DNA of 64,000 nt from an uncultured Eubacteriales bacterium (GCA_964607705.1 CAZSLI010000002.1:2791-66790), one strand, 5' to 3'; numbered from the stretch's first letter, positions 42,652 to 64,000 are shown. Notes: a model not told the origin generated them from the sequence alone. A program made the numbers and translations.

Positions 42652-42670
42652 TATCCGGCCCCCATGGCCC

Positions 42671-43186: not shown

Positions 43187-43189
43187 GGG

Positions 43190-43801: not shown

Positions 43802-43802
43802 G

Positions 43803-46879: not shown

Positions 46880-46890
46880 GATCTCGTTCC

Positions 46891-47746: not shown

Positions 47747-47754
47747 CGCGTGCT

Positions 47755-49071: not shown

Positions 49072-49121
49072 CTGGCTCGTTCCCCTCCGCGGCCCTTCCG
49101 GGCAGCTGACGTCCCCCCGGC

Positions 49122-49970
49122 CTAGTAGCGGACCGGCTTGCGATAGATACGCTCTCTGCCATCTATCGGCTCAAAGCGCTCCGCGGCTTGAGGGCTCAAC
49201 TTCTCACTGCGCCCCAAGACGAGATAGCCTCCGCGCGCCAACGCTCCCCAAAACGTTTCGAGCGCTCGCGCCTGCTGCTCTCGATCGAAGTAGATGAACA
49301 CGTTGCGGCACATGATGAGATCGATCGATCGCTGTGGCGCCGGATCGAACAGGCTCGCTTCGCGGAACCGTACGATCTTGCGTACCGACGGGTCCATCTC
49401 GAACGCTTCGCGATTAACCGGCTGGGTGAATCGTACCTGATAACTGGCCGGGATGTGGCGCAGCCGCTGGTTGTCGAAGACGCCCAGCTCGGCCCTGCGC
49501 AGCGCCTCCCGGTCGAGGTCCGTCGCCAAGACTGACATCAGGTAGCGTGACTCGTCCTTCCCAACCGCGTCGAGCAGCATCATGGCGAGCGAATAGGGCT
49601 CTTCTCCGGTAGCACACGCCGCAGACCAAAGGCGGATCGTTCGACTTCGCCCCTCGGACTTCGACTCGAGCATGGGCCGCATGACATTACGCTTGATCGA
49701 GTCCCACACGACCTGGTCGCGGAAGAACTCGGTGACGTTGATCGTCAGCGTGTCCAAGAGGCGTTCGTACTCGTTCGGATCCGACTCTAGGACATCGGCG
49801 TACTGCCTGAACGAGTGCAGGTCGAGGGCGCGCAGCCGCGTGGTGATGCGCCGCTCCACGTACGCTCGACGATACAGCGACAAGTCGATGCCGCGTGCAT
49901 CGTTGACCTTGTCGATGAGTCGGTCGAGGCTGCCGCGATAGACTCCTGAGGAACCGCCCTCTTCCACGCG
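49122..49970 (-). CDS. cheR: chemotaxis protein methyltransferase CheR
   Basis: CheR N-domain ([16 protein letters not shown]) and SAM-MTase domain ([31 protein letters not shown]). I place the start at GTG 49970 after GGAGGGGGG. The track ORF extends to 50024. Confidence 0.88.
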
Positions 49971-50025
49971 CCCCCCTCCGACAGACACAACCGACCCCGC
50001 GTGTGAAGTGCTAGATATGCGCACC

Positions 50026-50031: not shown

Positions 50032-50078
50032 AGTATGCCAGTCAGTTCGTGCATCTCGCCGAAGAAAGGCGCCGGCTG

Positions 50079-51140
50079 GTGAAGGCCCCGAGCATCACTC
50101 AGAAGGTGGTCGCCGTCATTGCCGCGGCCGTCCTGCTCCTGCTCTCAAGCGGCTTGGCCTGGGCCGCCGCCAACGACTACCGAGAACGCGCCTTCGTTCC
50201 CCAGGGAGTCTCCGTCAACGGGACAGATCTCGGCGGCATGACCGAGGCCGAGGCCCGGACCGCAATCGAGCAGGCCGTCGCCGCCCCGCTCATGCGGCCG
50301 TTGGACGTCACGGTGGACAGCAGCACGGTCTCGTTCGATCCGCAGGATGCTGTGCGAGTCGACGTGGAGTCGATGCTCGACCAGGCATACGGCGCGCGCC
50401 GAAAGGCCGCCTTCGTCGCACGCGTACGGCACGACGTGGCGCATGAGCCCCTGACGGCCGTAGTGCGCCCCCAGTACTCGGTCGATGCCACGGCCGTCCA
50501 CACCTGGCTCACGGAGGTCGCCTCCACCGTTGACCGCCGAGCGGTCAACGCCACCATCACGGTAAGCGACGGCGCCGTGAAGCTCCGGCCGTCTGGTACC
50601 GGCAGGAAGACCGCCATCGATGACGGAGTCGCCAAGATCGTCGCGGCCTTCTCCGACGAGAGCGCTCTGTCCTCCTCGGCAGAGCGCGCCGTCGTCGTAC
50701 CGGTGGCCGTTCTCAAGCCGAAGGTCACCGAGAAAGACCTCGGCAAGACCATCGTGGTCGACCTCTCCGAGCGCCGTATCCGCCTCTATGACGGAGCGAA
50801 GATCGAGAAGACGTACCCCTGTGCGATCGGCACTCCGGACCATCCCACCCCGAAGGGGCACTTCGAGATCGTCCTCAAGCGCTACCTGCCCACGTGGGTC
50901 AATCCGGCGCCCAACAGCTGGGGCAAGGACATGCCTCCCTCTATACCGCCGGGGCCGGGGAACCCGCTCGGCACCCGCGCCATCAACCTGAGCGCGTCAG
51001 GCATCCGGTTCCACGGAACGACGAATCTCGGGTCCATCGGAAGCGCCGCGAGCCACGGGTGCATGCGAATGGTTCGGGCTGACGTGGAGGACCTGTACGA
51101 GCGCGTCAAGATAGGCGACCAGGTCTACATCGTCCCCTAG
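50079..51140 (+). CDS. membrane-anchored L,D-transpeptidase (YkuD domain)
   Basis: N-terminal TM helix, a long linker domain and C-terminal YkuD (IRLYDGAKIEKTYPCAIG...HGTTN...SHGCMRM). I place the start at GTG 50079. The track ORF starts at 50049. Confidence 0.88.
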   Translation: MKAPSITQKVVAVIAAAVLLLLSSGLAWAAANDYRERAFVPQGVSVNGTDLGGMTEAEARTAIEQAVAAPLMRPLDVTVDSSTVSFDPQDAVRVDVESMLDQAYGARRKAAFVARVRHDVAHEPLTAVVRPQYSVDATAVHTWLTEVASTVDRRAVNATITVSDGAVKLRPSGTGRKTAIDDGVAKIVAAFSDESALSSSAERAVVVPVAVLKPKVTEKDLGKTIVVDLSERRIRLYDGAKIEKTYPCAIGTPDHPTPKGHFEIVLKRYLPTWVNPAPNSWGKDMPPSIPPGPGNPLGTRAINLSASGIRFHGTTNLGSIGSAASHGCMRMVRADVEDLYERVKIGDQVYIVP

Positions 51141-51194
51141 CAGGCGAGCTCGCTCGCCGAGGGCTGACTCCTCGGCCGCACTGAGCCGTCGCGG

Positions 51195-54100
51195 CTAGCG
51201 GACGTACACCGTGCGGAACGTCGAGTACGACGGCGCGTGAGCGGTGTCCGCGTGGTATGCCCGTATGATCCACTTGCCCGTGTAGGGCAGCGACACGTAG
51301 CCGTAGTAGCGGCTGTAGCTGCTGTAGTTCTTCACCTTCACGCTGATCGTCTTGCGCAACTTGGGCTTGCCGCTCTCATAGCGGTAGCACTGGAGCTTGA
51401 CTGCGTAGGTGCCCGAGGAGTGGCGCGGCTTCAGGTTGCCGTACGTGCTGAAGCGCACGTTGCGTCCGGTTCTTGACGGCGCGTACGGCGTCGAGAGATA
51501 GACCTTCGGAGTCACTGCGAACACCTGCGTCGCTGCCGCGGCCTCGAAATCGGCGTCCGCATCGGTCGTCAGGCGGTACGAGGTCTTCACGGTTGGCTTG
51601 ACCGTGAAAGACACCTTGCCGGCTGCATCGGTCTGGCGGCTGTCGACTCTCCGCCAGCTCCCGGACAGGTACTCAAGGAAGACGGTCTTGCCCGGCAACG
51701 CTCCACTCTCCACGGCGCTCCACGAACCGCTGATCGCCGCGCTGCCGCCGTACGCGATGACGCTCGCCGAAGAAGCGCCCGAGAGCTGCGTCGACTCCTT
51801 GGGGTCTACCGAGAGACGTGTGGCACGAGCGGACTCGTTCCCCGCACCGTCGTACGCCACGAACTCCACCTTCACGGGGCGATAGCCCGACCACGACACC
51901 TCGTCGGGCGTCCAACTGGTCTCCCAGCTGCCGTCCGGGTTCACGGTCACCGGGAGTCTGATGGGCTCAGGCTGCCAACCGGCGCCGCTCCAGTACATTG
52001 CGTCCCGGGTGATCGCTATGCTTGCCGCGTCGATTCCGGACCGTGAGTCTGATGCTGTCCCGGAGAGCGTGACGGTTGCCTCGCGCGTCAGCGGGAACGG
52101 CACGTTCGCTTGAGCGATAGTGGCGCTGGGCGCCGAGGTGTCGAGCACTATCGAGTCGGAGGCCGTGGCCCCCACGGTATGGCTTGCGTCAGACGAGAAC
52201 CGGAACGTCACCGTCCGCGTACCCTCGCCTGCGCCTAGTGACAGCGTAGCCGCCGAGGACCCGCCGTAAGGCATCCACTCGCTGGGCGCACCGCCGTCAA
52301 CCTGATAGCTCACCGAAGTCGCTCCGACCGCGGACACCGTCGCCGTCACCGTCTGCGAGCCGGTGTACCGATCTCCGCCGTTGAGAGCGATCTGCGCTGC
52401 GATCGGCACCGCCGAGACGACGCCGGGCGTGGTGACTGAGACGAGTCCGTAGCCGTCGGTCGCATGCGCCTCGAGGGTGACCATCTCGCCGGGGATGATC
52501 TGATCGGGCGTCAGCGTCCAATCGTAGTACCAGCTGGCCCCGCCCGTGACAGGGAGCCAGACCTCGGCCCCGTTGTTCCAGCCGCTCCCGTTCCAACAAC
52601 GACCGGAACTCCGCCTTATCAGCACCTCGACGCCTTGAACCGTGCCTCCCGTGTCTGCGGCTGTACCCGAGATACGTGTGGTGTTTGCCGACAGCCTGAA
52701 TCCCGCCGCAGGTGAACTGATCGCGACGCTGGGGACCGACGTGTGCAGGACGATGTCGTCACTGGCCGAGGCCTCTACGCTGGCCCCTCCGGTGGACGAG
52801 AAGCGGAACCAGACGCGCTTCACGCCGTCACCGGCAGGCAGCGTGATACCGGTCGCCGAGGCGTACGGCTCCCACGCCGAGAAGGCGCTGCCGTCGAAGC
52901 TCATCTGCATGTGGGTGGGCGTGCCGGTGGTCGCCACGGACGCGATGATGCCGCGCGTCGTGGTGTAGGCCGCACCGGCTTGCAGTGAGACGGCGGCGGC
53001 GATGCCGACGCTCGAGTCCCTCTGGGCACTCGTCCCTTGCAGCCCCACGCCATCGGTCGCCCTGGCCGTCACCGAGACGATGTAGCCCGCGAGCTGATCC
53101 GTCGGCGGGACCGCCCAGTCGTACGACCAGCCGATGCCGGTCATCGGTAGCCAGAAGTCACCGGGCGTCCAGGCGAGGCCATTCCAACTACGCCCGTCCG
53201 AGCGGCGGATGCGCAGCTCCGTGGACGATATGATGCCGTCGACATCTGACGACGTACCGGATACGTGGACGAGCGGTGTGTTGAGCGAGAAGCCGGAGGC
53301 GGGAGTGGCCAACGCCACTTCGGGAATGCTGGTATGCAGAAGGATCGAGTCCGAGGCCGTAGCCTCGACACTGGCCCCGCCGGTGGACGAGAGCTCGAAA
53401 ATGACCGTCTTGGTGCCGTCGCCCGACGGGAGTGACACGGCGGCACTCGGAGCGTAGTCCTGCCAGCCCGTGAAGGTTGCTCCGCTGTCCACGCTCCACC
53501 GCATCTTGTTGGGAGTGCCCGTGGTGGCGAGGGATGCGGTGACTCCGGTGCTCGTCGTGTACGCCGCCCCGCCATTCAACGAGACGGCCGCCGCCACCGA
53601 GACGCTCGATGAGACCGTCGCCGCCGAGCCGACGAGTCCAACCATGTCTGTCGCGCGCGCCGAGATGGAGATGATCTGACCGGCGGCGAGTTGTCCTGCT
53701 GAAGGAGCCCAGCGGTACGACCAGTTGCCCGTTCCGGTCGCCGGGATCCAGGATGTTGCACTGCTCCATCCCGAGCCGGTCCAGGTGTAGCCGTCCGACC
53801 GTGTGATGAGCACTTCGACCGAGGTCAGGCTGCCTCCAGCGTCTGCCGCCGTCCCCGTGATGGTCACCGGCACACTCGTGAGCGAGAACCCGTTCGCGGG
53901 CTGTGCGATCGCGACGGAAGGCACGCTCGTGTGCAGCAGGATGGAGTCGCTTGCCGTCGCATCAGTCGTACCGTCGCCTGCCGATGAGAACTCGAACGTG
54001 ACGGTCTTCACGCCATCACCCGCGGTCAAAGTGACCGCCTTGCTTGCCGAGTACGGCTCCCAAGCGTTGTAGCCCGTGCCGTTGTTCCAGCGCATGCGAT

Positions 54101-56081
54101 TCGGCGTGCCGGTCGTCGCGATCGACGCGACAACGGTAGTTCCGCTGGCATACGTGTCGCCCGTGTTGAGCGCCATCGAGGCCACGACGGGCACGCGTGA
54201 CGTCACGCCCGCACTCGAGCCGGTGAGCCCGGCCGCATCGACCGCGCGTGCGGTGAGCGTGACCGCCCGGCCGGAAGCACGAACCGACGCATCCGGAGTC
54301 CAAGCGAGCTGCCAAGTCGCATAACCATCGCTCGTCGTCACCGGCAGCCAGGTCTCCGTGGCAGTCCAAGCGGTGCCGTTCCACGTCAGGCCGTCAGCCC
54401 GCTGGACGCGAACCGACACACTTGACACAGCACCTACCGCGTCGAATGCCGTGCCGGCTACGGTGACCGGCCCGTTCAGCGAGAATGCCGTGCTGGGACT
54501 GGTGAGCGCGACCGACGGCGCCTGGGTGTCGAGCGTGATGCCGTCGGATGCGGTTGCGGCGATGGTGGCTCCGCCGTCCTTGGAGAACTGGAAGGTTACG
54601 AGCTTAGCGCCATCTCCCGGCGGGAGGACCACAGAGGCGGCGGTGGAGTACGTCGACCAGCCGGTCCATGACGCTCCCCCGTCGACCGACCAGCGCATGA
54701 CGCTCGCCCCGGGCGCCGAGATGCTCGCCTGGACGGTGCCTTGCGTGGTCGTGGCGGCACCGGCGGCGAGCGCCACCGAGGCGACCATCGGGACCTGCGA
54801 CGAGACGGTCCCGCTGACGGTCGTCAGGGGCGTACCGTCGGTGGCGCGCGAGGTGACGGACACGATCTGACCCGAAGCCAAGTCGGCGGCTGAGGGAGTC
54901 CATGAGTAGCTCCAGGTGCTCCAGTCGCCTGCCGCCCGGGGCTGCACGGCGAGCCAGGTATCGGCACTCGTCCATACACCAGGCGTGCCGGTGAAGCACT
55001 GGCCGTCAGCGCGGCGGATCCGCACTCCTACCGACCGTACTCCCGTGCCTATGTCCGACGCGGTGCCCGTGATGAGAACCGGGGATGACGAGAGCACGAA
55101 GTCCGCAGATGGAGAGGCCAAAGAGATGCCCGGCGGGTTCGAGGGGACACTGACTGTCACCTCGGACGAATGTCCGTAGGCGCCGTTGGCGTCCCACGTC
55201 TGCACTGAATAGCGGTACTGCCGGCCCTCGCCCCTGATCGGCTGGGACAGTGTCAGGTCGGCGGCGGCGCTTGAGACCGACGGCGTGATGTCGTTCCATG
55301 CGCTGCTTCCGCCGTCCGCCCACCATGCCTTATAGAGGATGGGACGGGTCTCGAGCGCTGTGGTCGTGGTTGACGAGTACGGCCGCTTCCATGACAGCTG
55401 CACCGCTGAAGTGCCCGCAACGGACGTGAACTCGCGCGGCGGCCCATACTTCCAGCCGAAGAACTCGACGTCATCGATCGTGGGACCCAGACCGTCAGCG
55501 TCCATGGGCTTGTTCTCGAAACGTATGCGCGCGTAGCCCGCGCGTCGCGAAAGGCCGTATGGCGAGCTGCCCAAGTCGTAGCTCACCTTGCGCCAGCTTG
55601 CCGACGTGCCAAGTCGCGCAGGAGCGGAGAACTGGCTGCCTGCGACGCCCCAGTTCGCATAGAAGTCGTCTGCGGCGCCCATGCTCGGATTGATGAAGTA
55701 GTAGCTCAGGTCGCCGGTGTAGTAGTCGGCCATCTGAGGAAGATCGAACCGGATCTCGCTGCTGGCGTAGTAGGAGTACCCGTAAGTCGGATAGGTGCTG
55801 GCTAGGAGTGTGTCGCTTCCGCTGCACCACAGGCCGGTGGACCCCCCGTACACGCTGTTCTTCTCGCTAGTGATGGGACCCCAGGTGACGGCTTCGCTGC
55901 CATCGGCCCATGGCTGGGAGAACATCGTGTACTTGGGAGTGGTTCCGGGCTCGAATCCCTCACGACCGAGCAGCGAGACGCCGGACGTCGCAGGCCCGGC
56001 GAATGCGGGCGCAGGGATACACAGCGCCGCCGCGAGAGCGACCACCAGTAACGTTCTGAGAGAACGTGCCGGACGCTGCAC
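51195..56081 (-). CDS. 1628-aa secreted repetitive cell-surface protein (lectin-like N-domain, FN3, five and a half tandem double-Ig units, two C-terminal Ig-like domains)
   Basis: Signal peptide MQRPARSLRTLLVVALAAALCIPAPAFA. FN3-like aa 216-312. Repeats are delimited by ASD(S/G/D)I.L(H/D)T..P(S/E)VA. Thr/Ser/Gly/Ala-rich with no Cys-rich or haem motifs. Confidence 0.85.
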   Translation of the reverse strand: MQRPARSLRTLLVVALAAALCIPAPAFAGPATSGVSLLGREGFEPGTTPKYTMFSQPWADGSEAVTWGPITSEKNSVYGGSTGLWCSGSDTLLASTYPTYGYSYYASSEIRFDLPQMADYYTGDLSYYFINPSMGAADDFYANWGVAGSQFSAPARLGTSASWRKVSYDLGSSPYGLSRRAGYARIRFENKPMDADGLGPTIDDVEFFGWKYGPPREFTSVAGTSAVQLSWKRPYSSTTTTALETRPILYKAWWADGGSSAWNDITPSVSSAAADLTLSQPIRGEGRQYRYSVQTWDANGAYGHSSEVTVSVPSNPPGISLASPSADFVLSSSPVLITGTASDIGTGVRSVGVRIRRADGQCFTGTPGVWTSADTWLAVQPRAAGDWSTWSYSWTPSAADLASGQIVSVTSRATDGTPLTTVSGTVSSQVPMVASVALAAGAATTTQGTVQASISAPGASVMRWSVDGGASWTGWSTYSTAASVVLPPGDGAKLVTFQFSKDGGATIAATASDGITLDTQAPSVALTSPSTAFSLNGPVTVAGTAFDAVGAVSSVSVRVQRADGLTWNGTAWTATETWLPVTTSDGYATWQLAWTPDASVRASGRAVTLTARAVDAAGLTGSSAGVTSRVPVVASMALNTGDTYASGTTVVASIATTGTPNRMRWNNGTGYNAWEPYSASKAVTLTAGDGVKTVTFEFSSAGDGTTDATASDSILLHTSVPSVAIAQPANGFSLTSVPVTITGTAADAGGSLTSVEVLITRSDGYTWTGSGWSSATSWIPATGTGNWSYRWAPSAGQLAAGQIISISARATDMVGLVGSAATVSSSVSVAAAVSLNGGAAYTTSTGVTASLATTGTPNKMRWSVDSGATFTGWQDYAPSAAVSLPSGDGTKTVIFELSSTGGASVEATASDSILLHTSIPEVALATPASGFSLNTPLVHVSGTSSDVDGIISSTELRIRRSDGRSWNGLAWTPGDFWLPMTGIGWSYDWAVPPTDQLAGYIVSVTARATDGVGLQGTSAQRDSSVGIAAAVSLQAGAAYTTTRGIIASVATTGTPTHMQMSFDGSAFSAWEPYASATGITLPAGDGVKRVWFRFSSTGGASVEASASDDIVLHTSVPSVAISSPAAGFRLSANTTRISGTAADTGGTVQGVEVLIRRSSGRCWNGSGWNNGAEVWLPVTGGASWYYDWTLTPDQIIPGEMVTLEAHATDGYGLVSVTTPGVVSAVPIAAQIALNGGDRYTGSQTVTATVSAVGATSVSYQVDGGAPSEWMPYGGSSAATLSLGAGEGTRTVTFRFSSDASHTVGATASDSIVLDTSAPSATIAQANVPFPLTREATVTLSGTASDSRSGIDAASIAITRDAMYWSGAGWQPEPIRLPVTVNPDGSWETSWTPDEVSWSGYRPVKVEFVAYDGAGNESARATRLSVDPKESTQLSGASSASVIAYGGSAAISGSWSAVESGALPGKTVFLEYLSGSWRRVDSRQTDAAGKVSFTVKPTVKTSYRLTTDADADFEAAAATQVFAVTPKVYLSTPYAPSRTGRNVRFSTYGNLKPRHSSGTYAVKLQCYRYESGKPKLRKTISVKVKNYSSYSRYYGYVSLPYTGKWIIRAYHADTAHAPSYSTFRTVYVR
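52134..55136 (-). repeat. five tandem ~199-codon (~0.6 kb) coding repeats, with a partial sixth copy reaching about 51807
   Basis: Unit boundaries are at aa 316, 521, 720, 919 and 1117, and the last full unit ends at aa 1316. Each unit has two parts. The first is an Ig-like domain with ..(I/V)(T/S)GTA.D..G.(V/L)..V.V.I.R.DG..W.G..W. The second is a ..(L/I)N(G/T)G..YT....V.......G.P..M.......(F/Y)..W..Y......L..GDG.K.V.F.FS domain. Confidence 0.8.
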
Positions 56082-56095
56082 TTACCCACTACCCC

Positions 56096-56896
56096 TTAGC
56101 GCGCTGCGGGCACCTTCGACGCGATGTCGACTCCTAGCGCCTTGACGCTTGCCGGCTTAGTACCGGGCCGAACGGTGACCACCACTTCGAACGCGTACCG
56201 GCCGCGCGCGAATGCCACCGCCGCTACCCCTGCACCATTCGTGCCGAAGTAGCCTGAATCCACTATTCCTACACGCACGGGCTGAGCATCGACCGAATAC
56301 GGCCGCTTGACCGCGTTCTTCACGTAGGCCTGCGCCTTCGCTTCGGATCCCATGTCGTGTGCATAGACAGCAGCACGCGTCACGGTCGCGCGCGCCGCTC
56401 GGTCCTTCAAAGACGGCTCGAACGTGACCAGGGCATCAGAGCCCTGTACGGTCACACGGCCCTTGCTCCACGTCCCGTAAGACGAAGGAAGCAGAGTCCC
56501 GAGGTCCTTGACCGCCTTGGCGTACGGTCCGGCCGGCGGTGCCGCTGGTTCTTCGGCTGGTTGACCGCCCGAGACAGGGGTCTCGGTCGCGGGGGGCGCC
56601 TGCGCCGTATCGATCACACGCTTCGCAGTAGCGTTGTTCGGGTCCGCCTTGAGCGCCTTGTTCGCGAGCGCAAGGGCCGTCGCCGTCTGGTTCTGTGAGA
56701 GCGCCGCATCCGCGCTCGACGCAAGCTTCTCGGCCTCGAGGGTACCCTGCGTCACCGGTGCCGGTTCCTGCTGCTTCTTCGGCGCCGACAACGCTGACAT
56801 GCCGAAGATGACGGCCGCCAGACCCACAACCGCAGCACCCGCGATCGCGAGTTGCTTCCAGGTGAACTTAGGGCTGGCGTTCGGGTCCTTGGCCAT
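56096..56896 (-). CDS. single-pass membrane-anchored protein of unknown function (266 aa)
   Basis: ATG after GAGGGAG. One TM helix (LAIAGAAVVGLAAVIFGMSAL), a Pro/Ala/Glu linker and an extracytoplasmic globular domain of about 130 aa. It lies 21 nt after the 14-haem gene and 14 nt before the giant gene. Confidence 0.6.
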   Translation of the reverse strand: MAKDPNASPKFTWKQLAIAGAAVVGLAAVIFGMSALSAPKKQQEPAPVTQGTLEAEKLASSADAALSQNQTATALALANKALKADPNNATAKRVIDTAQAPPATETPVSGGQPAEEPAAPPAGPYAKAVKDLGTLLPSSYGTWSKGRVTVQGSDALVTFEPSLKDRAARATVTRAAVYAHDMGSEAKAQAYVKNAVKRPYSVDAQPVRVGIVDSGYFGTNGAGVAAVAFARGRYAFEVVVTVRPGTKPASVKALGVDIASKVPAAR

Positions 56897-56917
56897 GGGA
56901 ATGACGCTCCCTCGATA

Positions 56918-59917
56918 TCAGAAGACGTACGGGTAGTCTGCAGAGCTCATGTGACAGCCGCTCACGCACGAGCCACCGATCGGCTGACCGGAGCCCACCG
57001 TCTCGGTCCATTTCACCTCATCGCGCAGCAGATGCTTCTGCCGCGGGTTCCCGTGGCTCTCGTGGCACGAGCCGCACGCCATCCCGAGAGAGGCGTGATA
57101 CGAGTGCAGTCGGCTGGGTGTATCGGCGGTGTTGTAGAAGCCACTCTGCTTCACGCCATGCACCTCGCCGAGACCACTGACGTAGACGGCCGGCTCGTGG
57201 CACGTGACGCAGAGGCCGCTCGTGGAGTCGGCAGCGATAGCCACCTGCGGCTTCTTCAACAGCGGGAAGTTGGTCGAACGGTGAGGTCCTGCCGGCGTGG
57301 AGGCAGACGACCGGCCATGGCACGACGAACAGGTGAGCGTGTCGCCCGGCTGCGCGCCGTTGACGAGGACCTCTCCGAGCGAGTTGTCCGCGCGGGCCTC
57401 GCCCTCGATGGGATGGAACGACGCACCCAGCGTGTTGATCTCGGAGGCGATGCTGCGGACGTCGGCCGAAGCCCAACGGGAGTGGCAACTGAAGCAGACC
57501 TCGTACTCGGCGGTCGCGGTCTCGCGCTTCGAGGCGAGGCTCACCGTGCGCGAATCGATGTTCGTGGCTATGACTCCCTGAGCGCCGATGAGCGCGCCTG
57601 GCATCGAACTGGTGTCCGCGGATGCCGACTTGGCGAGGTGCGAGTTGTGACAGTCGGAGCACTCGACGTGCCGCGTGTCCATCGCGGACTCGGTCGACTC
57701 GTGTGCCCCGGGCGCCTGGCCAACCGTGTGCCGCGAGGGCCCGATCGCGCCTAGGTCCACTGCCACGACATGGGCGTTGCGCCCCGCCGCCTCGACACCG
57801 CCGACCTTGAGGTCGAACGAGCCGGTGACGTCTTGGCCGTCCACATCGGTCTGCAGCACCCTGAGCGACGGCGGCACGGCGTCCGCGGCGTGAGTGAAGG
57901 ATCCGGCGAGCGCCACGGTGACATCGCTCCGGCCGTCGCCGTTCGCATCGCCGAGCGCCAACCCGGAAGGCCTGGCGGCCGCAGGGGTGGCCGTGTCGAC
58001 CATCGAGACGAGCGGCGAGTCGGCTGACGGCATGATGCGCACGCCGCCGTCACCCGCCTCGTCAGTGAAGGTGACCGCGATCTCTCGGCCTGCCGTGCCT
58101 ACGGCCGGCGTCGCGCCGGGGAAGATGTCGCCCACGGCCAGCGCGCTCGCCTGCGCACCGGCAGCGAGCGGGCCGCCACCGGAGAGGTACTCTGTTCCAT
58201 TCGCCCTGTAGAGGGCGACCACGTCGGTCAGCTCGCCCGCGTAGGCCACTGCGATCTCTTTGGTGCTCGCCACGTCATCGATATCGGCGACTGCGGCGGC
58301 GACCGGCTGGCTCAGCGCGGCAACGTCCACATCGATCCGTAAACCGCCCAAGCCGTCGTCTGAGAGCACGTAGAGCCGGTCAGGCGCCGTGGTCGTGACC
58401 ACGATCTCCTCGCCCGGGCCGTCGGTCAGGTCGCCCAGGGCTATCGCCGTCGGGGTGCCCGTCACCGTCGCCGAGGACTTCGGCAGCATGGTGTGCCCGA
58501 GGACATTGGCGGTGATCACCTTGCCGGCGGCCGTCGTGTAGACGGTCTCGGGTGCGTCCATCAGGTCGAAGTAGACGTCGCCCACAGCAAGCGCGGTCGC
58601 CCGCTCCCCGCCGGGAAGCGAGAAGACGGTCTCGCTCACTATCCGGGACGCGTCGCGCTGTAGCATCGCCAGCTTCGCCGAGGACGTGCTGGCCACGAGC
58701 GCCTCGCCGGTGCTATCCCCGTCCACGTCTCCGGCGGCGATCGGGCCGATGGCGCCCAGGCCGCTCATGTCAGGGATCCGCGGGCCGCTGGGTATCGCCG
58801 CGGCTGTGGACTCGCGCGCGTAGAGCGCCACGCGGCCGTAGGCGGCGACCGATGCCTCGAAAGAGGCGAGCACCTCGAGACCGGGAGTCGTGGGACTGTA
58901 CTTCAGCGAGGCGAAGTCCGTCTTGGCCGGACCAGCCGCTTGGTGGCAACGGTCGCAAAGTGCGCGGCCCGAGGCGTCGAGGAGGTTGGGCAGCGGATTC
59001 CCTGTGCCATCCGAAGTACCCATCGCGTTGTGGCACGCCTGGCACTCGCCCACCGTGCGCGTGGCTCCGACACTCGCCCACTCCCCGCCCACCGGAACCG
59101 TGGATGCCGAGGAGGCGTGCGCGGAAGACGCGTACGCCGAGGAACCCGGCCAGACGCCGACACCGACACGGTGACAGCCTGCACACAGTGTCCGGTCGTC
59201 ACCCTTGACGGCAGCAGTCGCGGGCGCGGAAGGCGTGACCAGTGATGAGCGTATGTTCGCCTCGTAGGGTGAGCCATGCGGCTCGTGACATGCCGAGCAC
59301 ACGATCTTGGATGCCGTCGGCGCCTCGATGGCGGCATGAGGCGTCTTCGCCCAGATCGCCGCACCGGGGAAGCGGCTCGCGGAGCGCACCCAGTGGCATG
59401 ACGTGCAGAACTGGTCGCCCTGGTAGACGAGACTGCCGGTGACGGTTACCGAGCGGAGCAGGTCGGGGTACGGGGTCCCCGTCACAACGCGCGCCGAGCC
59501 GTGAGCGTCGTGGCAGGTACCGCATTGCTTGGACGCAGGGCCGAATGCCGATGGGCTCGGCGCGAGCAGATGCGCAGAGCTGGCCTCGAAGGACGACTGC
59601 ACGTCCGTGCCGGATCCCAGGGCGTCGACGCCGTGGCAGGTGTAGCACAACTCGACGTCTGCTTCGCCAGGGACCGCGAGCAAGGCACTCGACGTCGTGC
59701 CGGCTGAGTTCGTCCAGGTGCCCCTGCTCGGGGCGGAATGGGTCCTGTGGCACATCGCACAGACGTCGGTGTCGGCGGCGGCTGCAACGTGCGGCGGGAG
59801 AGTCGCTGTGGCCGAGGCAGGGGCTGCGGCAGCAGCATCGGGGTACGCGCATGCCAAGGCAACCGTCAGTGCGACGGCCGCCACGGCAAGTAGCCCGATG
59901 GTGTTGCGCAACCTCAC
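56918..59917 (-). CDS. 999-aa secreted multihaem cytochrome (8 + 6 haem motifs) interrupted by an FG-GAP/VCBS-like beta-propeller
   Basis: Signal peptide. 13 CxxCH motifs plus a C-terminal CVSGCH. The central part (aa ~345-735, nt 57713-58885) carries six or seven repeats of the type (A/G)(L/V)A(V/L)GD(V/L/A)(D/N/T)(G/D).....E(I/A)(V/A)V. Confidence 0.88.
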   Translation of the reverse strand: MRLRNTIGLLAVAAVALTVALACAYPDAAAAAPASATATLPPHVAAAADTDVCAMCHRTHSAPSRGTWTNSAGTTSSALLAVPGEADVELCYTCHGVDALGSGTDVQSSFEASSAHLLAPSPSAFGPASKQCGTCHDAHGSARVVTGTPYPDLLRSVTVTGSLVYQGDQFCTSCHWVRSASRFPGAAIWAKTPHAAIEAPTASKIVCSACHEPHGSPYEANIRSSLVTPSAPATAAVKGDDRTLCAGCHRVGVGVWPGSSAYASSAHASSASTVPVGGEWASVGATRTVGECQACHNAMGTSDGTGNPLPNLLDASGRALCDRCHQAAGPAKTDFASLKYSPTTPGLEVLASFEASVAAYGRVALYARESTAAAIPSGPRIPDMSGLGAIGPIAAGDVDGDSTGEALVASTSSAKLAMLQRDASRIVSETVFSLPGGERATALAVGDVYFDLMDAPETVYTTAAGKVITANVLGHTMLPKSSATVTGTPTAIALGDLTDGPGEEIVVTTTAPDRLYVLSDDGLGGLRIDVDVAALSQPVAAAVADIDDVASTKEIAVAYAGELTDVVALYRANGTEYLSGGGPLAAGAQASALAVGDIFPGATPAVGTAGREIAVTFTDEAGDGGVRIMPSADSPLVSMVDTATPAAARPSGLALGDANGDGRSDVTVALAGSFTHAADAVPPSLRVLQTDVDGQDVTGSFDLKVGGVEAAGRNAHVVAVDLGAIGPSRHTVGQAPGAHESTESAMDTRHVECSDCHNSHLAKSASADTSSMPGALIGAQGVIATNIDSRTVSLASKRETATAEYEVCFSCHSRWASADVRSIASEINTLGASFHPIEGEARADNSLGEVLVNGAQPGDTLTCSSCHGRSSASTPAGPHRSTNFPLLKKPQVAIAADSTSGLCVTCHEPAVYVSGLGEVHGVKQSGFYNTADTPSRLHSYHASLGMACGSCHESHGNPRQKHLLRDEVKWTETVGSGQPIGGSCVSGCHMSSADYPYVF

Positions 59918-61314
59918 TCTGCGGCGACCCCTTTCTCAGCGGCGAGCGCAGCAGACACGACGGCGGGGTCGGGCCTCTCGGCCCCTTCCCTTGCGGCGAC
60001 GTCTATCGCGACCGACAGAGCAGCGGCGGCGACGTCGAGCCGAGTGCCAGCGGGCACGGCGGCGAGAAGCTCATGGGTCCACACGGGGGGCTCAGCGTCT
60101 ACCGACGCCGAAGCGATCCACTCCTCGACGATATCGCGGTCGAAGACGGCGTCGCGCGCGGAAACGGTCTCAAGCTCGTCGTAGCGCCATGAGACCCGCC
60201 GCGCCGCAGCGAAGGCCTCAGCGACCTCCGGAGCGATGTCCGGCCGAAGGATGAGCATGAGACCGCCGAAGTCCTTCAGTGCCCAACGCAGAGAGGTCAG
60301 AGTGTTGACGATCTTGAGTCGCAGATCCGCGGGCACCGTCGGCCAGATCTCGAAACGGTCGAACATGACGGCGACCGCACGTATGCGCGGCGAAGCGAAC
60401 TTCACGAGCGCCACGAGTGTCTTGCTCGGCGCCTTCGAGACCTTGAGCTCCTCGGCCATCGACGATCGGCCCTGGGCCTGATAGGCCCTGACACCTCGTG
60501 CGACGACGGGTGAGAGATTCTTCTTGAGATAGGCGACAAGGTAGTCGCCGAGCAGCGACTCCACGTCCACAGGCTGAGCGTCGTCCGCAGCCGGGAGCGC
60601 AGTCTCGTCCACGTCGCCGAGCGGCGTGACGAAAGCGGCGGCCATCGGGTCGTCCGGGGAGTCCTCGGAGGCCTTCAGCGACTCCTCGCCCTCGGCCGGA
60701 TCGGTCTCCAGGCGATCGATACGCGCGGTGGACACGCGCATGAGCGCCTCGAGGTCCTCGGCTCCCTCGCGTGACGCAAGCGGCTCGCCGAAGATGCGCC
60801 GGGCGTAACCAGCAGGGTCCTCGGCCACGTCGGTTGCGACCGACGCGACGTCGAAGCCGGCCTCTGTGAGCGCCACCCACTCGGGCAGTGCCTCATCGGG
60901 AGTCGCAAGAGCGGCCTGGAGCCACGTGCCGATGGTCAGGTCCGGCTGACGCGCAGCCACCCACTCGGCTGCGGAATGCAGGACCGCCCGGACGCGCCCG
61001 ATGCGCATCATGTCCAGTGGCACGTAGAGCTGCATGATGCCGGGGACCGCCTCATCGGTGGCGAGCGCCCGCAGCGCAGGGGCAAGCGCCTGCACCGCGT
61101 AGATGGCGGGCAGGTCGCCCTTTTCCACGACGGTCGGACGGTGATCGGGGTCGGACGCGAGCACGTTCACGGCCGAAAGTAGCCGGTACGACGCGGCGAC
61201 GACCGACAGGCGCATACCATCGGAGTCGGTGGTGTCTTCTTGAGGGAGAGACAGCGGGTTGCCGAGCAGCCCAAGCGTGTCGAATGCGGGCGTCACAGCC
61301 TCGCGAGGTTCCAT
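59914..61314 (-). CDS. unknown 466-aa protein without signal peptide, translationally coupled to the 14-haem cytochrome gene
   Basis: The ATG at 61314 lies 8 nt after AAGGAG. The track ORF starts 3 codons earlier at a GTG. The stop TGA overlaps the GTG start of the next gene (GTGA). The protein is acidic and Ala/Leu-rich with no Walker A motif. Confidence 0.6.
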   Translation of the reverse strand: MEPREAVTPAFDTLGLLGNPLSLPQEDTTDSDGMRLSVVAASYRLLSAVNVLASDPDHRPTVVEKGDLPAIYAVQALAPALRALATDEAVPGIMQLYVPLDMMRIGRVRAVLHSAAEWVAARQPDLTIGTWLQAALATPDEALPEWVALTEAGFDVASVATDVAEDPAGYARRIFGEPLASREGAEDLEALMRVSTARIDRLETDPAEGEESLKASEDSPDDPMAAAFVTPLGDVDETALPAADDAQPVDVESLLGDYLVAYLKKNLSPVVARGVRAYQAQGRSSMAEELKVSKAPSKTLVALVKFASPRIRAVAVMFDRFEIWPTVPADLRLKIVNTLTSLRWALKDFGGLMLILRPDIAPEVAEAFAAARRVSWRYDELETVSARDAVFDRDIVEEWIASASVDAEPPVWTHELLAAVPAGTRLDVAAAALSVAIDVAAREGAERPDPAVVSAALAAEKGVAAE

Positions 61315-61460
61315 GCAGTGCACTCCTTACCGGTGGGGCGCGCGAGACCTGCCGGGGTCCCTTGGAGGACGCGTCCTCTGTCCAGCTCGAATTATAGCGG
61401 GATATGGGGTTTTGCACCTGCTGTTTGAGAACTCCGTGCCATCTGGAACGGGTTCACGAA

Positions 61461-61494
61461 GAAGGCCCCGACCGGTTTCCCGATCGGGGCCTTC
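61461..61494 (-). terminator. hairpin after the OmcS-like cytochrome gene
   Basis: GAAGGCCCCGA-(12 nt)-TCGGGGCCTTC, an 11-bp stem 34 nt after the stop at 61528. Weak U tract (TTCGTG) on the minus strand. Confidence 0.5.
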
Positions 61495-61527
61495 GCTCAC
61501 GCCATCAGGCGTTTTGCCACAGACGAA

Positions 61528-62817
61528 CTACTTGTTGTGGCAGCGCTCGCACACGCCGCGGTTGTCCGCGCGGAGCAGGGCGCTCGAAACGTTCGGGTTC
61601 ACGCCGGCCGGAGCAACCGTCGTAGGCTCGACCGTCCACGTGACGGAGGCCGTCGGGTTGTTCTTGAGGCGAGCGTTGGCCCATCCGGTCATCACGGCAG
61701 ACGAGCCGTGTGCACGGTGGCAGGTCAGGCAGCCCATGTAGTCGGTGAGCAGCCAGTTGCCGCTGCCGGTCGCACCCTTGGTCTGCACGGTCTTCTCCAG
61801 CGGAAGCACGGTGCTGGTGACGGCGTTGGTGCCAAAACCGTTGATGGTGTTGGCGCTAGCCGGCGTGATGTCGACCGGGTGGCGGTGACGGCCACGGTTG
61901 CCGATGACCTCGGTCGCGCCCGAGACGGACAGCTGACCGCTGCCGTCGCGAGTGAGCGTACCGTTGGACTCGTAGGCACCGTAGTTGTAGTTCGAGCTGG
62001 TCTCGTTGTAAGCCTCGTGGCACGCGGAGCACCAGGTCGACATGGAGCGGAAGCCCTCGCCCTGAGAGTAAGTGGCGTTGCCGCCGAACAGATACTCAGG
62101 CGTGGTGTAGTTCGGTCGATACGAAGCCATCTGCGCCGCACCCGGCTGATGCTTCAGCCAGCCGCCGACCGCGGTGGTCCCCACGGCAGAGACAGGGTAG
62201 CCCTGCTCAGACGAGAAGACGAACGGCTGCGGAACGTCGGCCGCCGTGTAACCGCCGACCGTGTGGTTGTTCACACGATCCTTGAGAAGGCGGTAGTTGG
62301 ACGAGCCGTGAACGTCGTGGCAGCTGGTGCAGGTGAGATCCGTACCCACGGGTGCCGACGAGCCGGCGCCCCACATCGGGTCGGTGACAGCACCCTTGCC
62401 CATGTCGTGCATGGACGACATGCCCGAGAACGCGCCGCCGTTGAGCGTGGCGTCCAGGGTCGAGTTCGTCTGGTAGAGGATGCCTCCACCGAGCGCGACA
62501 TTCTTCGCGCCGGAAGGACCGCCGTCGAAGATGCCTTCCTCGACGTTGGTCGACGCACCAGGAGCCATGGCACCGTGGCACGCGAGGCAGAACTCCTCCA
62601 TCGTGCTGGCCGACGAGACGAGCAAGGCGCTGTTCTGGCCGCCTGCGCCGTCAGTCCACGTCAGATCCGAGAAGGAAGTGTGAGCGCGGTGACAGCCAGC
62701 GCACGCATCAGTATCGAGCGCGTAGCCGCCGTGCGGGCCGAAGTTTGCAAAGGCGGTGCCGGTCATGGCCAACAGGGCCACGGCTGCGATCGCCAGGATG
62801 ATAAATGCTCTCTTCAC
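61528..62817 (-). CDS. secreted hexahaem c-type cytochrome, OmcS-like
   Basis: 429 aa. Signal peptide ...GTAFA/NFGPHGG. Six CxxCH motifs at Cys39, 77, 163, 263, 363 and 423. Their contexts resemble Geobacter OmcS (see findings). GTG start 8 nt after AAGGGGG, 20 nt downstream of the hydrogenase gene. Confidence 0.85.
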   Translation of the reverse strand: MKRAFIILAIAAVALLAMTGTAFANFGPHGGYALDTDACAGCHRAHTSFSDLTWTDGAGGQNSALLVSSASTMEEFCLACHGAMAPGASTNVEEGIFDGGPSGAKNVALGGGILYQTNSTLDATLNGGAFSGMSSMHDMGKGAVTDPMWGAGSSAPVGTDLTCTSCHDVHGSSNYRLLKDRVNNHTVGGYTAADVPQPFVFSSEQGYPVSAVGTTAVGGWLKHQPGAAQMASYRPNYTTPEYLFGGNATYSQGEGFRSMSTWCSACHEAYNETSSNYNYGAYESNGTLTRDGSGQLSVSGATEVIGNRGRHRHPVDITPASANTINGFGTNAVTSTVLPLEKTVQTKGATGSGNWLLTDYMGCLTCHRAHGSSAVMTGWANARLKNNPTASVTWTVEPTTVAPAGVNPNVSSALLRADNRGVCERCHNK

Positions 62818-62837
62818 TCAGTTCACCCCCTTATCGG

Positions 62838-64000
62838 TTAGTGGACCGCGCAAGCGATGCACGGGTCGAAGGACTGGGCAACGCGGAGAGCCTCGACGCC
62901 ACCACCGGTGGCCTGGACGTTGCCAGCCACGTTGGTGAACGATGCCCCAGCCGCATTGTACGGGATGCCGATCATGGCCTTCTCGATCGGGCCCTCGGTG
63001 CCGCCGGGCACGTCCTTGGGACCCGCGTTCCAGGTCGTCGGGACGATGCACTGGTAGCGGACGATCTTGCCCTTGTCCGTGGCACACATGTGCATGAGGG
63101 CTCCACGAGGAGCTTCCGTCGCACCGAAGCCGAAGCGGTAGCCCGGAGGCATCGTCTTGTGGCTGTAGGTGGCGGTGAACGTACAGTTGTTCAGCTGCTG
63201 GATCCAGCCGATGCCGGTACCCGTGGCGTTGACGGCCTTCCAGGTGAGCGGCGCGCCGCCGACGGCACCCTTGGTGAAGTCGCCCACGATCTTGGTGACC
63301 GTGACGAGCGACTCGAGCGCACGACCGCGCAGGCGGTCCATGGTGGACAGGCCACCCTTGAGGCCGACGATCCAGTCACGGACGACACCCATGATGACGG
63401 CGTTGGCGTTCGTGTAGACCGAAAGCAGCGTGGCATTGTCCGCACCAGCAGTGTTGGACTTGGTGTAGTGCGTGGCGCCGACCCAGACCTCTGCGAGGCC
63501 CTCGCGCAGCAGGGCGACCGCGAGGTCTGCCTCCACCATCGCCGGATCGAGACCGGTGTTGCCGGCCGCGGTCTTGACGTAGCGCATGTAGAGCGGGCTG
63601 AGGCCAGGCTGGCTGGCGAGCGTGGTGACACCGTCGACCGGATACAGGCCGCCGACGACCATGCGCGCGAACGGTCCGACTTCCATCGGGTAGTAGGTCC
63701 CGCTGACGTTCCAGCGAGGAGCCTTCAGCCATGAGTAGCCGACCGCGCGATTCGGGACCGTACGGGCCTCGGTCGCAGGATTGGTCACCGTGGTCGCGAC
63801 GACACTGGAGACGGAGCCGTCGGCGAGAACCTGGCCGCTCGTCACGGAGCCCGCGTAGTGCGAAGCGCCGATGAACTCGCGGAGGTTGTCGAGGACGTTC
63901 TGGCTCGTGATCGTGCCGCTGACACCGGTCTTGAGGCGGTAGCCACGGGCGAGGCCGAGCGTACCGTCCTTCTGCGGGAAGCCACCCCATGCGAGGAAGT
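62838..64000 (-). CDS. [NiFe] hydrogenase large subunit, group-1-like, C-terminal ~385 codons (gene continues beyond the right edge)
   Basis: Contains YSWLKAPRW, EVGPFARMVVG, STMDRLRGRALE, EAPRGALMH, VPTTWNAGPKD and the terminal FDPCIACAVH-stop. The frame is open to the window end according to the ORF track. In the sequence as printed, an extra C at 63900/63901 shifts the frame. Confidence 0.92.
   Translation of the reverse strand, partial: FLAWGGFPQKDGTLGLARGYRLKTGVSGTITSQNVLDNLREFIGASHYAGSVTSGQVLADGSVSSVVATTVTNPATEARTVPNRAVGYSWLKAPRWNVSGTYYPMEVGPFARMVVGGLYPVDGVTTLASQPGLSPLYMRYVKTAAGNTGLDPAMVEADLAVALLREGLAEVWVGATHYTKSNTAGADNATLLSVYTNANAVIMGVVRDWIVGLKGGLSTMDRLRGRALESLVTVTKIVGDFTKGAVGGAPLTWKAVNATGTGIGWIQQLNNCTFTATYSHKTMPPGYRFGFGATEAPRGALMHMCATDKGKIVRYQCIVPTTWNAGPKDVPGGTEGPIEKAMIGIPYNAAGASFTNVAGNVQATGGGVEALRVAQSFDPCIACAVH

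Follow-up and report, generated by a model that had tools for sequence, protein, structure and literature searches.

A 14-haem c-type cytochrome with a haem-free centre

We analysed 64,000 nucleotides from an uncultured Eubacteriales bacterium (GCA_964607705.1 CAZSLI010000002.1:2791-66790; this whole stretch is referred to hereafter as the window, with positions counted from its first letter), and describe here a multihaem cytochrome gene that occupies 56918..59917 on the minus strand. The open reading frame (ORF) begins with GTG, encodes 999 residues and has a third-position GC content of 0.83, which is high, like that of other genes in the window; its motifs, Pfam matches and homologues point to a secreted 14-haem c-type cytochrome with an inserted FG-GAP beta-propeller. 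A preliminary description, made from the sequence alone, had listed eight CxxCH motifs in the N-terminal part and five CxxCH plus one CVSGCH in the C-terminal part. A motif scan reproduces this list exactly (CxxCH at residues 53, 91, 132, 171, 207, 245, 292 and 321, then at 753, 808, 863, 903 and 948, followed by the CxxxCH motif CVSGCH at 984–989), giving 13 CxxCH and one CxxxCH, hence 14 haem motifs. This is far above chance, shuffled versions of the protein (n = 2000) containing a mean of 0.03 CxxCH and a maximum of 2. The protein has 29 cysteines, all of which belong to haem motifs with the exception of Cys23, and there are none between residues 325 and 752.

From its N-terminus (all features of the gene being on the minus strand), the protein begins with a Sec-type signal peptide (residues 1 to ~32, MRLRNTIGLLAVAAVALTVALACAYPDAAAAA, 59822..59917; read from the sequence, with an inferred cleavage site). 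The most hydrophobic window of the protein begins at residue 6, and AlphaFold2 places a helix at residues 3–23. There follow an octahaem array (residues 41–344, 58886..59797; defined by motifs, Pfam and NCBIfam) that ends in a paired-CXXCH unit and whose motifs are all invariant or nearly so, the propeller (residues 345–725, 57743..58885), a junction (residues 726–752, 57662..57742) carrying His730, His739 and His750, each invariant or nearly invariant, and a C-terminal hexahaem module (residues 753–999 plus the stop codon, 56918..57661). We predict that the protein is exported by Sec and that its haems are attached outside the cytoplasm; genes for CcmE and CcmF lie near the orthologues in two related loci, L003 and L004 (L and P numbers are our labels for related loci and for homologous proteins, respectively). 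Lipoprotein anchoring was considered and rejected, Cys23 being neither conserved nor in the context of a canonical lipobox.

The domain matches of the full protein are to Paired_CXXCH_1 (5e-26), to the MtrC/MtrF II-IV domain (3.5e-16) and to FG-GAP_3 (6.7e-8); in terms of score, PF09699 reaches 90.6 bits (cut-off 20.6), PF22113 59.7 bits (cut-off 30) and PF14522 52.5 bits (cut-off 24.8), and the NCBIfam model TIGR01905 reaches 69.1 bits (cut-off 25.2). These matches assign the haem parts to the broad paired-CXXCH and MtrC-domain-II/IV-like class. Public annotations of the family read “cytochrome c3 family protein” or “hypothetical protein”. Neither single-sequence nor profile searches of the PDB identified a haem-domain relative of solved structure (best E 0.01 or weaker), and among the 50 Foldseek matches listed for the full model, which the propeller dominated, there was no match to a haem domain.

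The first haem motif reads CAMCH57-R-T-H60. The preliminary description had drawn attention to this CHRTH arrangement with a histidine at the +3 position, which is real and is common to the neighbouring hexahaem cytochrome; the same CxxCHxxH pattern recurs at four further haems (His139, His214, His760 and His955), and all five +3 histidines are invariant in an alignment of 68 homologues. Conservation in this alignment extends to all 14 haem motifs and to 16 extra histidines.

The central region is a seven-bladed FG-GAP propeller

Between the two arrays, some 390 haem-free residues (nt 57713-58885) with FG-GAP-like repeats had been described beforehand; the coordinates map to residues 345–735, the quoted repeats are all present, and the proposal of a propeller is borne out by four independent kinds of evidence. 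PF13517 (FG-GAP_3) matches the central region in three stretches with 33.5 bits against a curated cut-off of 26.9, and a profile of 68 family members, compared with PDB sequences, finds human ITFG2 (6.2e-6), a Vibrio haemolysin-related protein (6e-4) and, weakly, integrin alpha-IIb (0.02–0.09). An AlphaFold2 model computed with the 68-member alignment has a predicted local distance difference test score (pLDDT) of mostly 87–98 per 10-residue block over residues 351–720, and places 28 beta-strands between residues 348 and 720, equivalent to seven blades of four strands each. The best Foldseek matches in the PDB are beta-propellers, mostly seven-bladed, with probability 1.00 (BBSome subunits, ITFG2 in KICSTOR, an archaeal S-layer YVTN propeller, 6-phosphogluconolactonase 1ri6, 1l0q and GATOR2 chains); template-modelling scores, normalised by target, are 0.60–0.72 over 330–394 columns to propellers such as 1ri6 (0.72), 1l0q and the GATOR2 chains. 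The central region is a genuine FG-GAP (integrin-alpha/ITFG2-type) seven-bladed propeller. That the region is rich in Ala, Gly, Val and Asp might instead suggest a disordered Ala/Gly/Asp-rich linker whose FG-GAP match is an artefact of composition, but this reading is refuted by the high pLDDT, the 28 regular strands, the Foldseek probability, the Pfam score above its curated cut-off and the conserved length of the region (the distance from the haem-8 histidine to the haem-9 cysteine is 416–451 residues in 67 of the 68 homologues), and we regard its probability as practically nil.

Six complete FG-GAP repeats start near residues 390, 442, 488, 538, 589 and 650, and the seventh blade is composed of the last strand of the domain (residues 712–720, “HVVAVDLG”, with the strand-1 motif) together with its first three strands (residues 348–380). 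Since the closing blade is assembled in this manner, the chain would enter the propeller at strand 2 and exit after strand 1 of one shared blade; blade count, ring closure and the points of entry and exit were deduced by comparing the strand list with the motif register and not by inspecting coordinates.

Two of the strand 1–2 hairpins carry calcium-type loops, scored by the pattern D-x-[DN]-x-D-[GSN]-x-x-[DE]: DVDGDSTGE in blade 1 (residues 397–405, 58703..58729, minus strand; motif in 53 of 68 homologues) and DANGDGRSD in blade 6 (residues 657–665, 57923..57949, minus strand; 60 of 68), within which Asp657 is invariant. The corresponding loops of the other blades are degenerate. We consider the two loops putative calcium sites, and the propeller probably calcium-binding. 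When loops are compared by class, the 1–2 loops are the most conserved (mean pair identity 0.44), whereas the 2–3 and 4–1 loops, which are short, are the least (0.31 and 0.30, respectively). In integrin propellers the 1–2 calcium loops lie on the lower face, while the 2–3 and 4–1 loops form the ligand-binding upper face (Springer’s propeller model). In the closing blade of the cytochrome propeller the haem domains take the place of the 1–2 loop, and for this reason we expect the haem core to be contacted by the conserved lower face, leaving the variable upper face exposed to the outside. Such an arrangement fits a structural or docking module whose exposed surface co-varies with its partner or environment.

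The conservation pattern also bears on whether the propeller could be a catalytic or cofactor-binding domain fed by the haems, making the protein an enzyme in the manner of cd1 nitrite reductase, hydrazine synthase or the quinohaemoprotein dehydrogenases. Cytochrome–propeller enzymes do exist, and cd1 nitrite reductase appears at Foldseek ranks 47 and 49. Across the 68 homologues, however, residues 345–725 contain no conserved His, Cys, Met, Tyr, Trp, Lys or Arg, invariance or near-invariance being confined to Gly, Asp, Glu, Thr and Pro within the repeat scaffold; the lack of conserved ligand residues makes a redox cofactor or active site in the propeller unlikely. The loops are moreover short, those of the presumed top face being the least conserved, and the affinity in sequence is to non-catalytic FG-GAP proteins (ITFG2 and integrin alpha), such that we hold a catalytic propeller to be very improbable.

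The propeller as a domain insertion

To place the propeller in an evolutionary context, relatives were scanned with one genome per GTDB species. At least 519 relatives were found, and the full architecture occurs in only ~20 of these, all Actinomycetota by record title or obvious mislabels; other relatives come from Thermoanaerobaculia, Deltaproteobacteria, Eisenbacteria, Holophagaceae, Zixibacteria, Planctomycetota, Bacteroidota, Betaproteobacteria and Geobacter hydrogenophilus, among others. Mapping 23 of the relatives onto the family profile reveals a common C-terminal module (profile positions 721–988, domain E 1e-23 to 1e-63), and many of the 23 also match the end of the N-terminal array (profile ~180–340). 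The propeller region is unmatched in this set save in L020, which is a fragment of a full-length member, and L036, whose C-terminal stretch begins at profile position 688. The C-terminal hexahaem module is thus widespread in shorter multihaem cytochromes of many phyla.

Eight propeller-less relatives (from Thermoanaerobaculia, Deltaproteobacteria, Holophagaceae, Eisenbacteria, Zixibacteria, Actinomycetota and other metagenome-assembled genomes, MAGs) were aligned directly, and their flanks align on both sides of the site, at which they have 10–13 residues versus 379 in the 999-residue protein (375–379 in the window protein and its close relatives). Their junction is compact: the haem-8 segment “LCxxCHD-G” is followed within those 10–13 residues by “KPYxHP...H...RHVxCxDCH”. 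Seven propeller-less cytochromes (L024, L083, L040, L021, L025, L027 and L069) have the same order of modules as the 999-residue protein, with a homologous paired-CXXCH end and hexahaem module (domain E 1e-41 to 1e-63), and differ in having 10–13 residues for the ~380-residue propeller, in possessing fewer N-terminal haems and in belonging to many other phyla. An NCBIfam scan gave the propeller-less relatives no family name.

In these alignments the propeller stands out as a discrete domain insertion. Insertion is more parsimonious than repeated loss because the propeller-less form spans many phyla, whereas the form with the propeller is confined to Actinomycetota.

Proposed continuity of the haem chain

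The preliminary description had regarded the cytochrome as split by the propeller, and had concluded that it did not look like a simple electron wire. This part of the description is not supported. Haems in this class of multihaem cytochrome are usually bis-His ligated, and the supply of conserved histidines outside the motifs is uneven about the propeller: there are seven in the N-terminal part (His43, 60, 116, 139, 194, 214 and 267) for eight haems, and nine in the part after the propeller (His730, 739, 750, 760, 835, 879, 938, 941 and 955) for six. If ligation is indeed bis-His, this imbalance means that at least one N-terminal haem would draw its distal ligand from the segment after the propeller. 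From the last propeller strand to the conserved His730 there are only 10 residues. The histidine counts, the direct junction in the propeller-less relatives, entry and exit through a single blade and the short path to His730 together suggest a single uninterrupted wire of 14 haems that is made up of both arrays, with the propeller attached laterally about halfway along it.

These features would be difficult to reconcile with a propeller that is a true spacer between two separate cytochromes, each with different partners and with no electron transfer between them. The ~380 haem-free residues that part the arrays in sequence are what such an arrangement would predict, but the same two modules are directly adjacent in relatives that lack the propeller, the entry and exit strands belong to one blade, only 10 residues lead from there to His730, and the histidine counts require cross-ligation; we therefore think it highly improbable that the arrays are separate.

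Distribution of the family

A database search for fusions of cytochrome and propeller had been proposed in the preliminary description, and a search of 5.8 billion proteins returned 88 homologues at 86–100% query coverage and 34–51% identity, plus a few distant ones. Named sources of the full-length homologues are Coriobacteriia, Anaerosomatales or “Actinobacteria” MAGs, and they include the cultivated obligate Fe(III) reducer Parvivirga hydrogeniphila Es71-Z0120 (P0044, MCL4079376.1) and Coriobacteriaceae bacterium EMTCatB1 from a thermophilic electromethanogenic biocathode (P0051). A HMMER scan of 1.8 billion representatives at 50% identity gave ~35 full-length clusters and many fragments; lower in the list are giant FG-GAP/VCBS repeat proteins (hundreds, of 2000–7000 residues) that match the propeller part only.

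The general plan is retained with some variation in haem number. A divergent branch (P0089, P0149, P0153 and P0155) has five to six haems before the propeller and five after it, and P0093 has 11 before and five after. Some members carry N-terminal Ig-like domains of extracellular type (Big_7, fn3, Big_13 or Big_5). The Big_7 unit that is fused N-terminally to the cytochrome in P0020 and P0023 is 42–48% identical to a repeat of the 1628-residue protein encoded nearby in the window (see below), and this domain fusion is circumstantial evidence that the cytochrome and the 1628-residue protein may act jointly outside the cell. The deposited 896-residue model of the EMTCatB1 member (1c0401/GAV31704.1; L003 9600-10060) is truncated at its N-terminus, a signal peptide and haem 1 (MRVRRLAVIAAF...CAMCHRTH) being encoded in frame upstream of the deposited start.

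A conserved gene cluster with hydrogenase or formate dehydrogenase

The cytochrome gene lies within a cluster transcribed entirely from the minus strand, in the order NiFe hydrogenase large subunit, hexahaem cytochrome, 469-residue protein, 14-haem propeller cytochrome, 266-residue protein and 1628-residue Big_7 protein. Spacing is tight at most junctions: 20 nt between hydrogenase and hexahaem genes, 204 nt between the hexahaem gene and that of the 469-residue protein, a 4-nt overlap of the latter with the propeller cytochrome, then 21 nt to the 266-residue protein and 14 nt from there to the 1628-residue protein. A scan of 50900-62900 for promoters and terminators gave nothing above shuffle expectation.

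The hydrogenase gene (62838..64000, minus strand; Pfam NiFeSe_Hases 3.5e-35) is represented by its C-terminal part and runs off the window. We rejected the idea of a truncated subunit, the gene ending only at the window edge, as tblastn gives a continuous alignment of 62838..64000 to residues 331–724 of the large subunit in L002. In that locus (L002 3475-7047) the small subunit begins MAITRRQFV, a twin-arginine motif, and the clustered subunits are unusually long (457 residues for the small and 724 for the large); their best NCBIfam matches are sub-threshold ones to NiFeSe-type models, and no cytochrome b gene accompanies them, the gene for the hexahaem c-type cytochrome standing in that place.

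The partner hexahaem cytochrome (429 residues, 61528..62817, minus strand, 20 nt downstream of the hydrogenase large-subunit gene; six CxxCH, Pfam) has orthologues in 16 related loci, each placed after an FdnG-like enzyme or a NiFe hydrogenase. The first ~70 residues of the hexahaem protein show homology to the start of the 999-residue protein (43% identity). After its signal peptide it reads NFGPHGGY...DACAGCHRAH, and its last haem motif ends two residues from the C-terminus. This start resembles the mature N-terminus of OmcS (FHSGG...CEGCHTMH), in which the +3 histidine ligates a haem of the next subunit; PDB searches gave no sequence match of the hexahaem protein to OmcS. Eight conserved histidines and one methionine are available for six haems in the hexahaem orthologues, a surplus.

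The gene that follows (59914..61323, minus strand) is an ORF for an orphan cytoplasmic protein of 469 residues, the stop codon of which overlaps the GTG start of the propeller cytochrome by 4 nt. The protein has no Pfam or NCBIfam match, signal peptide, transmembrane segment or Walker A motif; it has ~40 homologues and is kept in the hydrogenase-type clusters. AlphaFold2 models it with a pLDDT of 89, and Foldseek finds only a weak AAA+/ORC/BrxC-like resemblance (E above 0.05). It is odd that an operon of exported proteins should include a cytoplasmic one. Downstream of the cytochrome lie the gene for the 266-residue protein with one N-terminal transmembrane helix (56096..56896, minus strand; kept in L002 and L005) and the gene for the 1628-residue secreted repeat protein with Big_7 Ig-like domains (51195..56081, minus strand; Pfam Big_7 7.9e-18), a candidate scaffold or partner that is kept downstream in hydrogenase-type clusters.

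Comparison of ~20 related loci revealed two variants of this cluster. Variant A comprises the window, L002, L005, L006 and L019, with parts in L015, L020 and L061; in its fullest form (L002) it encodes a TPR protein, an NHL propeller protein, the hydrogenase small and large subunits, the hexahaem cytochrome, the 469-residue protein, the propeller cytochrome, the 266-residue protein and the Big_7 giant. Variant B occurs in Parvivirga (L004) and EMTCatB1 (L003), with minor differences in L007, L008, L010, L011, L016 and L017, and in part in L013 and L014. Its fullest form (L003/L004) opens with an FdnG-like molybdopterin enzyme (best NCBIfam match formate dehydrogenase-N alpha), a Fer4_11 subunit, the hexahaem orthologue (~40% identical) and two proteins of no assigned family, and continues with an NHL propeller protein, a 1220-residue BNR/CW_binding_2 wall protein and the propeller cytochrome. 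In L007 (434-3286) and L017 (912-3929) the FdnG-like ORFs begin at profile position ~200, the site of the selenocysteine of formate dehydrogenase-N; these are probably genes for selenocysteine enzymes whose starts have been mis-called on account of an in-frame stop at the selenocysteine site.

Judged by gene content, the constant core of both variants is an exported enzyme of predicted H2- or formate-oxidising type, a c-type hexahaem cytochrome where a b-type subunit would be usual, and the 14-haem propeller cytochrome; most loci add an NHL propeller protein and a giant surface protein to this core.

Orthologues in an Fe(III) reducer and a biocathode bacterium

Growth of Parvivirga hydrogeniphila, an obligate Fe(III) reducer, has been reported on H2 or formate, and the organism's genes MCL4079376-90, which encode multihaem cytochromes and a molybdopterin oxidoreductase, have been singled out as a probable determinant of Fe(III) reduction, with the propeller not noted (Khomyakova et al., PMC9686372). 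MCL4079376, the first gene of that cluster, is the orthologue of the 999-residue protein; the supplement of the paper holds no entry for it.

In EMTCatB1, 1c0408 and 1c0407 (formate dehydrogenase) and 1c0406 (cytochrome) are among the top 10% of transcripts in working biocathodes (Kobayashi et al., PMC7943316). The last of these is the hexahaem orthologue, and 1c0401 is the propeller cytochrome. Supplementary values in transcripts per million are 297, 139 and 137 for 1c0401 and 2716, 900 and 437 for 1c0406 (PMC7943316); if the columns represent closed circuit, open circuit and BrES, an order that we have assumed, expression would be 2–3-fold higher under current.

Comparison with known systems

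The outer-surface decahaem proteins MtrC, OmcA and MtrF of Shewanella are comparable in plan, being likewise extracellular wires built of haem domains and, in alternation with them, all-beta domains that carry no haem; it is their haem domains II/IV that are represented by PF22113, matched above. The beta domains of MtrC are split barrels, not propellers. MtrC also differs in having 10 haems rather than 14 and in being a lipoprotein on a diderm porin complex. Membership of the OmcA/MtrC family was rejected, there being no TIGR03507 match, 14 haems and a propeller as the sole non-haem domain. Membership of the OmcS type was likewise rejected, the sole match being of 20 residues to 6ef8_A (E = 0.2).

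The propeller itself is comparable to the integrin alpha head, to ITFG2 of KICSTOR and to bacterial FG-GAP/VCBS surface proteins, with which it has in common seven FG-GAP blades, DxDxDGxxD 1–2 loops and similarity in profile and fold; it differs from these in being an internal insert of a cytochrome and in that only two of its seven loops are canonical calcium sites. Propellers are otherwise found with extracellular cytochromes as separate polypeptides. NHL propeller proteins accompany such cytochromes in Geobacter metallireducens, Desulfovibrio ferrophilus and Ca. Tenderia, and beta-propeller lipoproteins occur in every OmcE nanowire cluster. These stand-alone proteins (the NHL proteins Gmet_0556, DFE_0451/0463 and UetH/UetI, and the lipoproteins of OmcE clusters) are non-catalytic, are tied genetically to extracellular multihaem cytochromes and have a presumed role in adhesion, stabilisation or assembly; an NHL protein is also present in the Coriobacteriia clusters. 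They are separate NHL-type polypeptides, whereas the propeller described here is of FG-GAP type and is fused inside the cytochrome.

Cytochrome cd1 nitrite reductase and hydrazine synthase similarly unite c-type haem and a beta-propeller in one protein or complex, but their propellers hold the catalytic cofactor or active site. We did not assign the protein to the cytochrome–propeller redox enzymes, its propeller being without conserved ligand residues. OcwA of Thermincola potens and CFE_2239 of Carboxydocella thermautotrophica are functional analogues, as secreted multihaem proteins that are proposed to be terminal reductases across or at the monoderm wall (PMC9686372). Single-sequence and profile searches of the PDB gave no match to a solved OcwA chain. 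CFE_2239 is a 17-haem cytochrome fused to an adhesin-like part, which is terminal rather than inserted and has not been recognised as a propeller.

Our literature search found no description of a multihaem cytochrome with an internal FG-GAP propeller, the sole FG-GAP match being a separate gene that adjoins homologues of hydrazine synthase. The haem and propeller classes themselves are known; what appears to be new is their combination as an extracellular multihaem wire with an inserted docking-type propeller, in a cluster linked to hydrogenase or formate dehydrogenase.

Proposed function

The reading that we favour, and consider reasonably probable, is of a 14-haem extracellular electron-transfer wire with a built-in, non-catalytic propeller for docking or anchoring. 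A Sec-exported cytochrome of bis-His type would serve as the wall or surface wire of an extracellular electron-transfer module in Gram-positive (Coriobacteriia-type) cells. Its ancestor would have been a contiguous multihaem cytochrome that received a propeller of ~380 residues in the loop between haem 8 and the His-rich segment preceding haem 9; the insert would be side-mounted, leaving both haem arrays packed as one chain. By the topology of integrins, the two calcium-type loops would stabilise the propeller on the face towards the haem core, with the variable face opposite directed outward. The propeller could then dock and orient the wire on partners from its cluster (the giant wall-associated protein, the NHL propeller protein or the hexahaem cytochrome) or on the cell wall, thereby fixing the position and orientation of the wire in the monoderm envelope, a task that would here be performed in cis and for which other cytochrome clusters have separate beta-propeller proteins. 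Our best guess is that the propeller serves docking or assembly, with circumstantial support from the conserved cluster and the Big_7 fusions. The anatomy, the insertion, the conservation and the gene linkage are observed, and the continuity of the haem chain, calcium binding, docking and the direction of electron flow are deduced.

Electrons would be exchanged among the exported NiFe hydrogenase (or, in the sister clusters, the FdnG-like formate dehydrogenase), the hexahaem cytochrome, the 14-haem wire and an external acceptor or donor, for example an Fe(III) mineral or an electrode. As oxidation of H2 outside the cell coupled to reduction of Fe(III) outside the cell would not on its own give a proton gradient, the path may serve electron uptake, or production of H2 or formate at cathodes, or may feed other membrane complexes.

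The variability of the presumed outward face, as expected of a surface that meets the environment, would also suit an adhesin for an external substrate (an Fe(III) mineral, electrode, exopolymer or partner cell) that brings the terminal haems into contact with it instead of docking proteins of its own cluster. FG-GAP/VCBS propellers are typical of adhesins and giant surface proteins, the hundreds of long repeat proteins that match the propeller part among them, and CFE_2239 has been interpreted as a fusion of cytochrome and adhesin. The location of the propeller in mid-chain is, however, a poor one from which to present terminal haems to a surface, and its strict co-occurrence with one set of cluster proteins speaks for partners that are proteins; an adhesin is in our view unlikely.

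Several observations weigh against a wire with a docking propeller. The giant proteins differ between variants (Big_7 versus BNR/CW_binding_2) and so cannot be one conserved ligand, and no wall anchor is recognisable in the cytochrome itself. Conservation within the propeller is lowest on the presumed outward face, which fits a variable partner or surface but would also fit a purely structural or steric role. The contact between haems 8 and 9 is a deduction rather than a measured distance, and the AlphaFold2 model, computed without cofactors, has a low pLDDT of 40–80 in the haem domains. A chain that led only from an exported hydrogenase to an external acceptor would not on its own create a proton gradient, so that both the direction and the purpose of the proposed electron flow are tentative. 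Expression of the propeller cytochrome in EMTCatB1 is only moderate.

More tentatively still, and with considerable doubt, the propeller cytochrome can be pictured as the hub of an undescribed wall-spanning machine of monoderm Actinomycetota, in which a hydrogenase or selenocysteine-type formate dehydrogenase would be wired via the hexahaem cytochrome and the 14-haem wire to solids, the propeller clamping the wire onto giant wall-bound scaffolds. Such a machine would permit oxidation of H2 or formate with Fe(III) minerals or, in reverse, production of H2 or formate from cathodes, Fe(0) or reduced minerals. The two surplus conserved histidines might further allow haems to be ligated between subunits, and the protein to oligomerise, on the pattern of OmcS.

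Structural detail is scarce on how electrons cross thick Gram-positive walls, and the family provides a defined, conserved and experimentally reachable case, in that it includes the cultivated P. hydrogeniphila and a member from an organism that dominates a thermophilic methane-producing biocathode. Clean insertion of the propeller would amount to a natural domain-insertion experiment, informing on where haem wires tolerate large additions and suggesting how they gain docking modules, which may be useful for engineered bioelectronic proteins. The strict linkage of an exported hydrogenase or formate dehydrogenase to a cytochrome of c type, not b type, argues for a direct route from enzyme to surface, of relevance to subsurface iron cycling, microbial corrosion and electromethanogenesis.

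Genes beyond the cluster

Adjoining the cluster in divergent orientation is a gene (50049-51140, plus strand) for a YkuD L,D-transpeptidase with a PG_binding_4 domain, and an L,D-transpeptidase also adjoins the cluster, mostly on the opposite strand, in at least seven loci (L002, L006, L007, L009, L016, L018 and L020); this arrangement hints at local wall remodelling around the cytochrome apparatus. Further along, a 717-residue protein with 21 CxxCH motifs, an N-terminal transmembrane helix and a NapC/NirT (quinol dehydrogenase-type) domain is encoded at 27951-30104 (minus strand), 27 kb from the cluster, and is a candidate for the membrane entry or exit point of the same electron-transfer network. 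Between these lies, directly beyond the cluster at 41158-50024 (minus strand), a complete chemotaxis operon (CheR, MCP, CheW, CheY, CheB, CheA, CheC and CheD) together with a GAF-GGDEF diguanylate cyclase; the CheR–MCP–CheW order is kept in L002.

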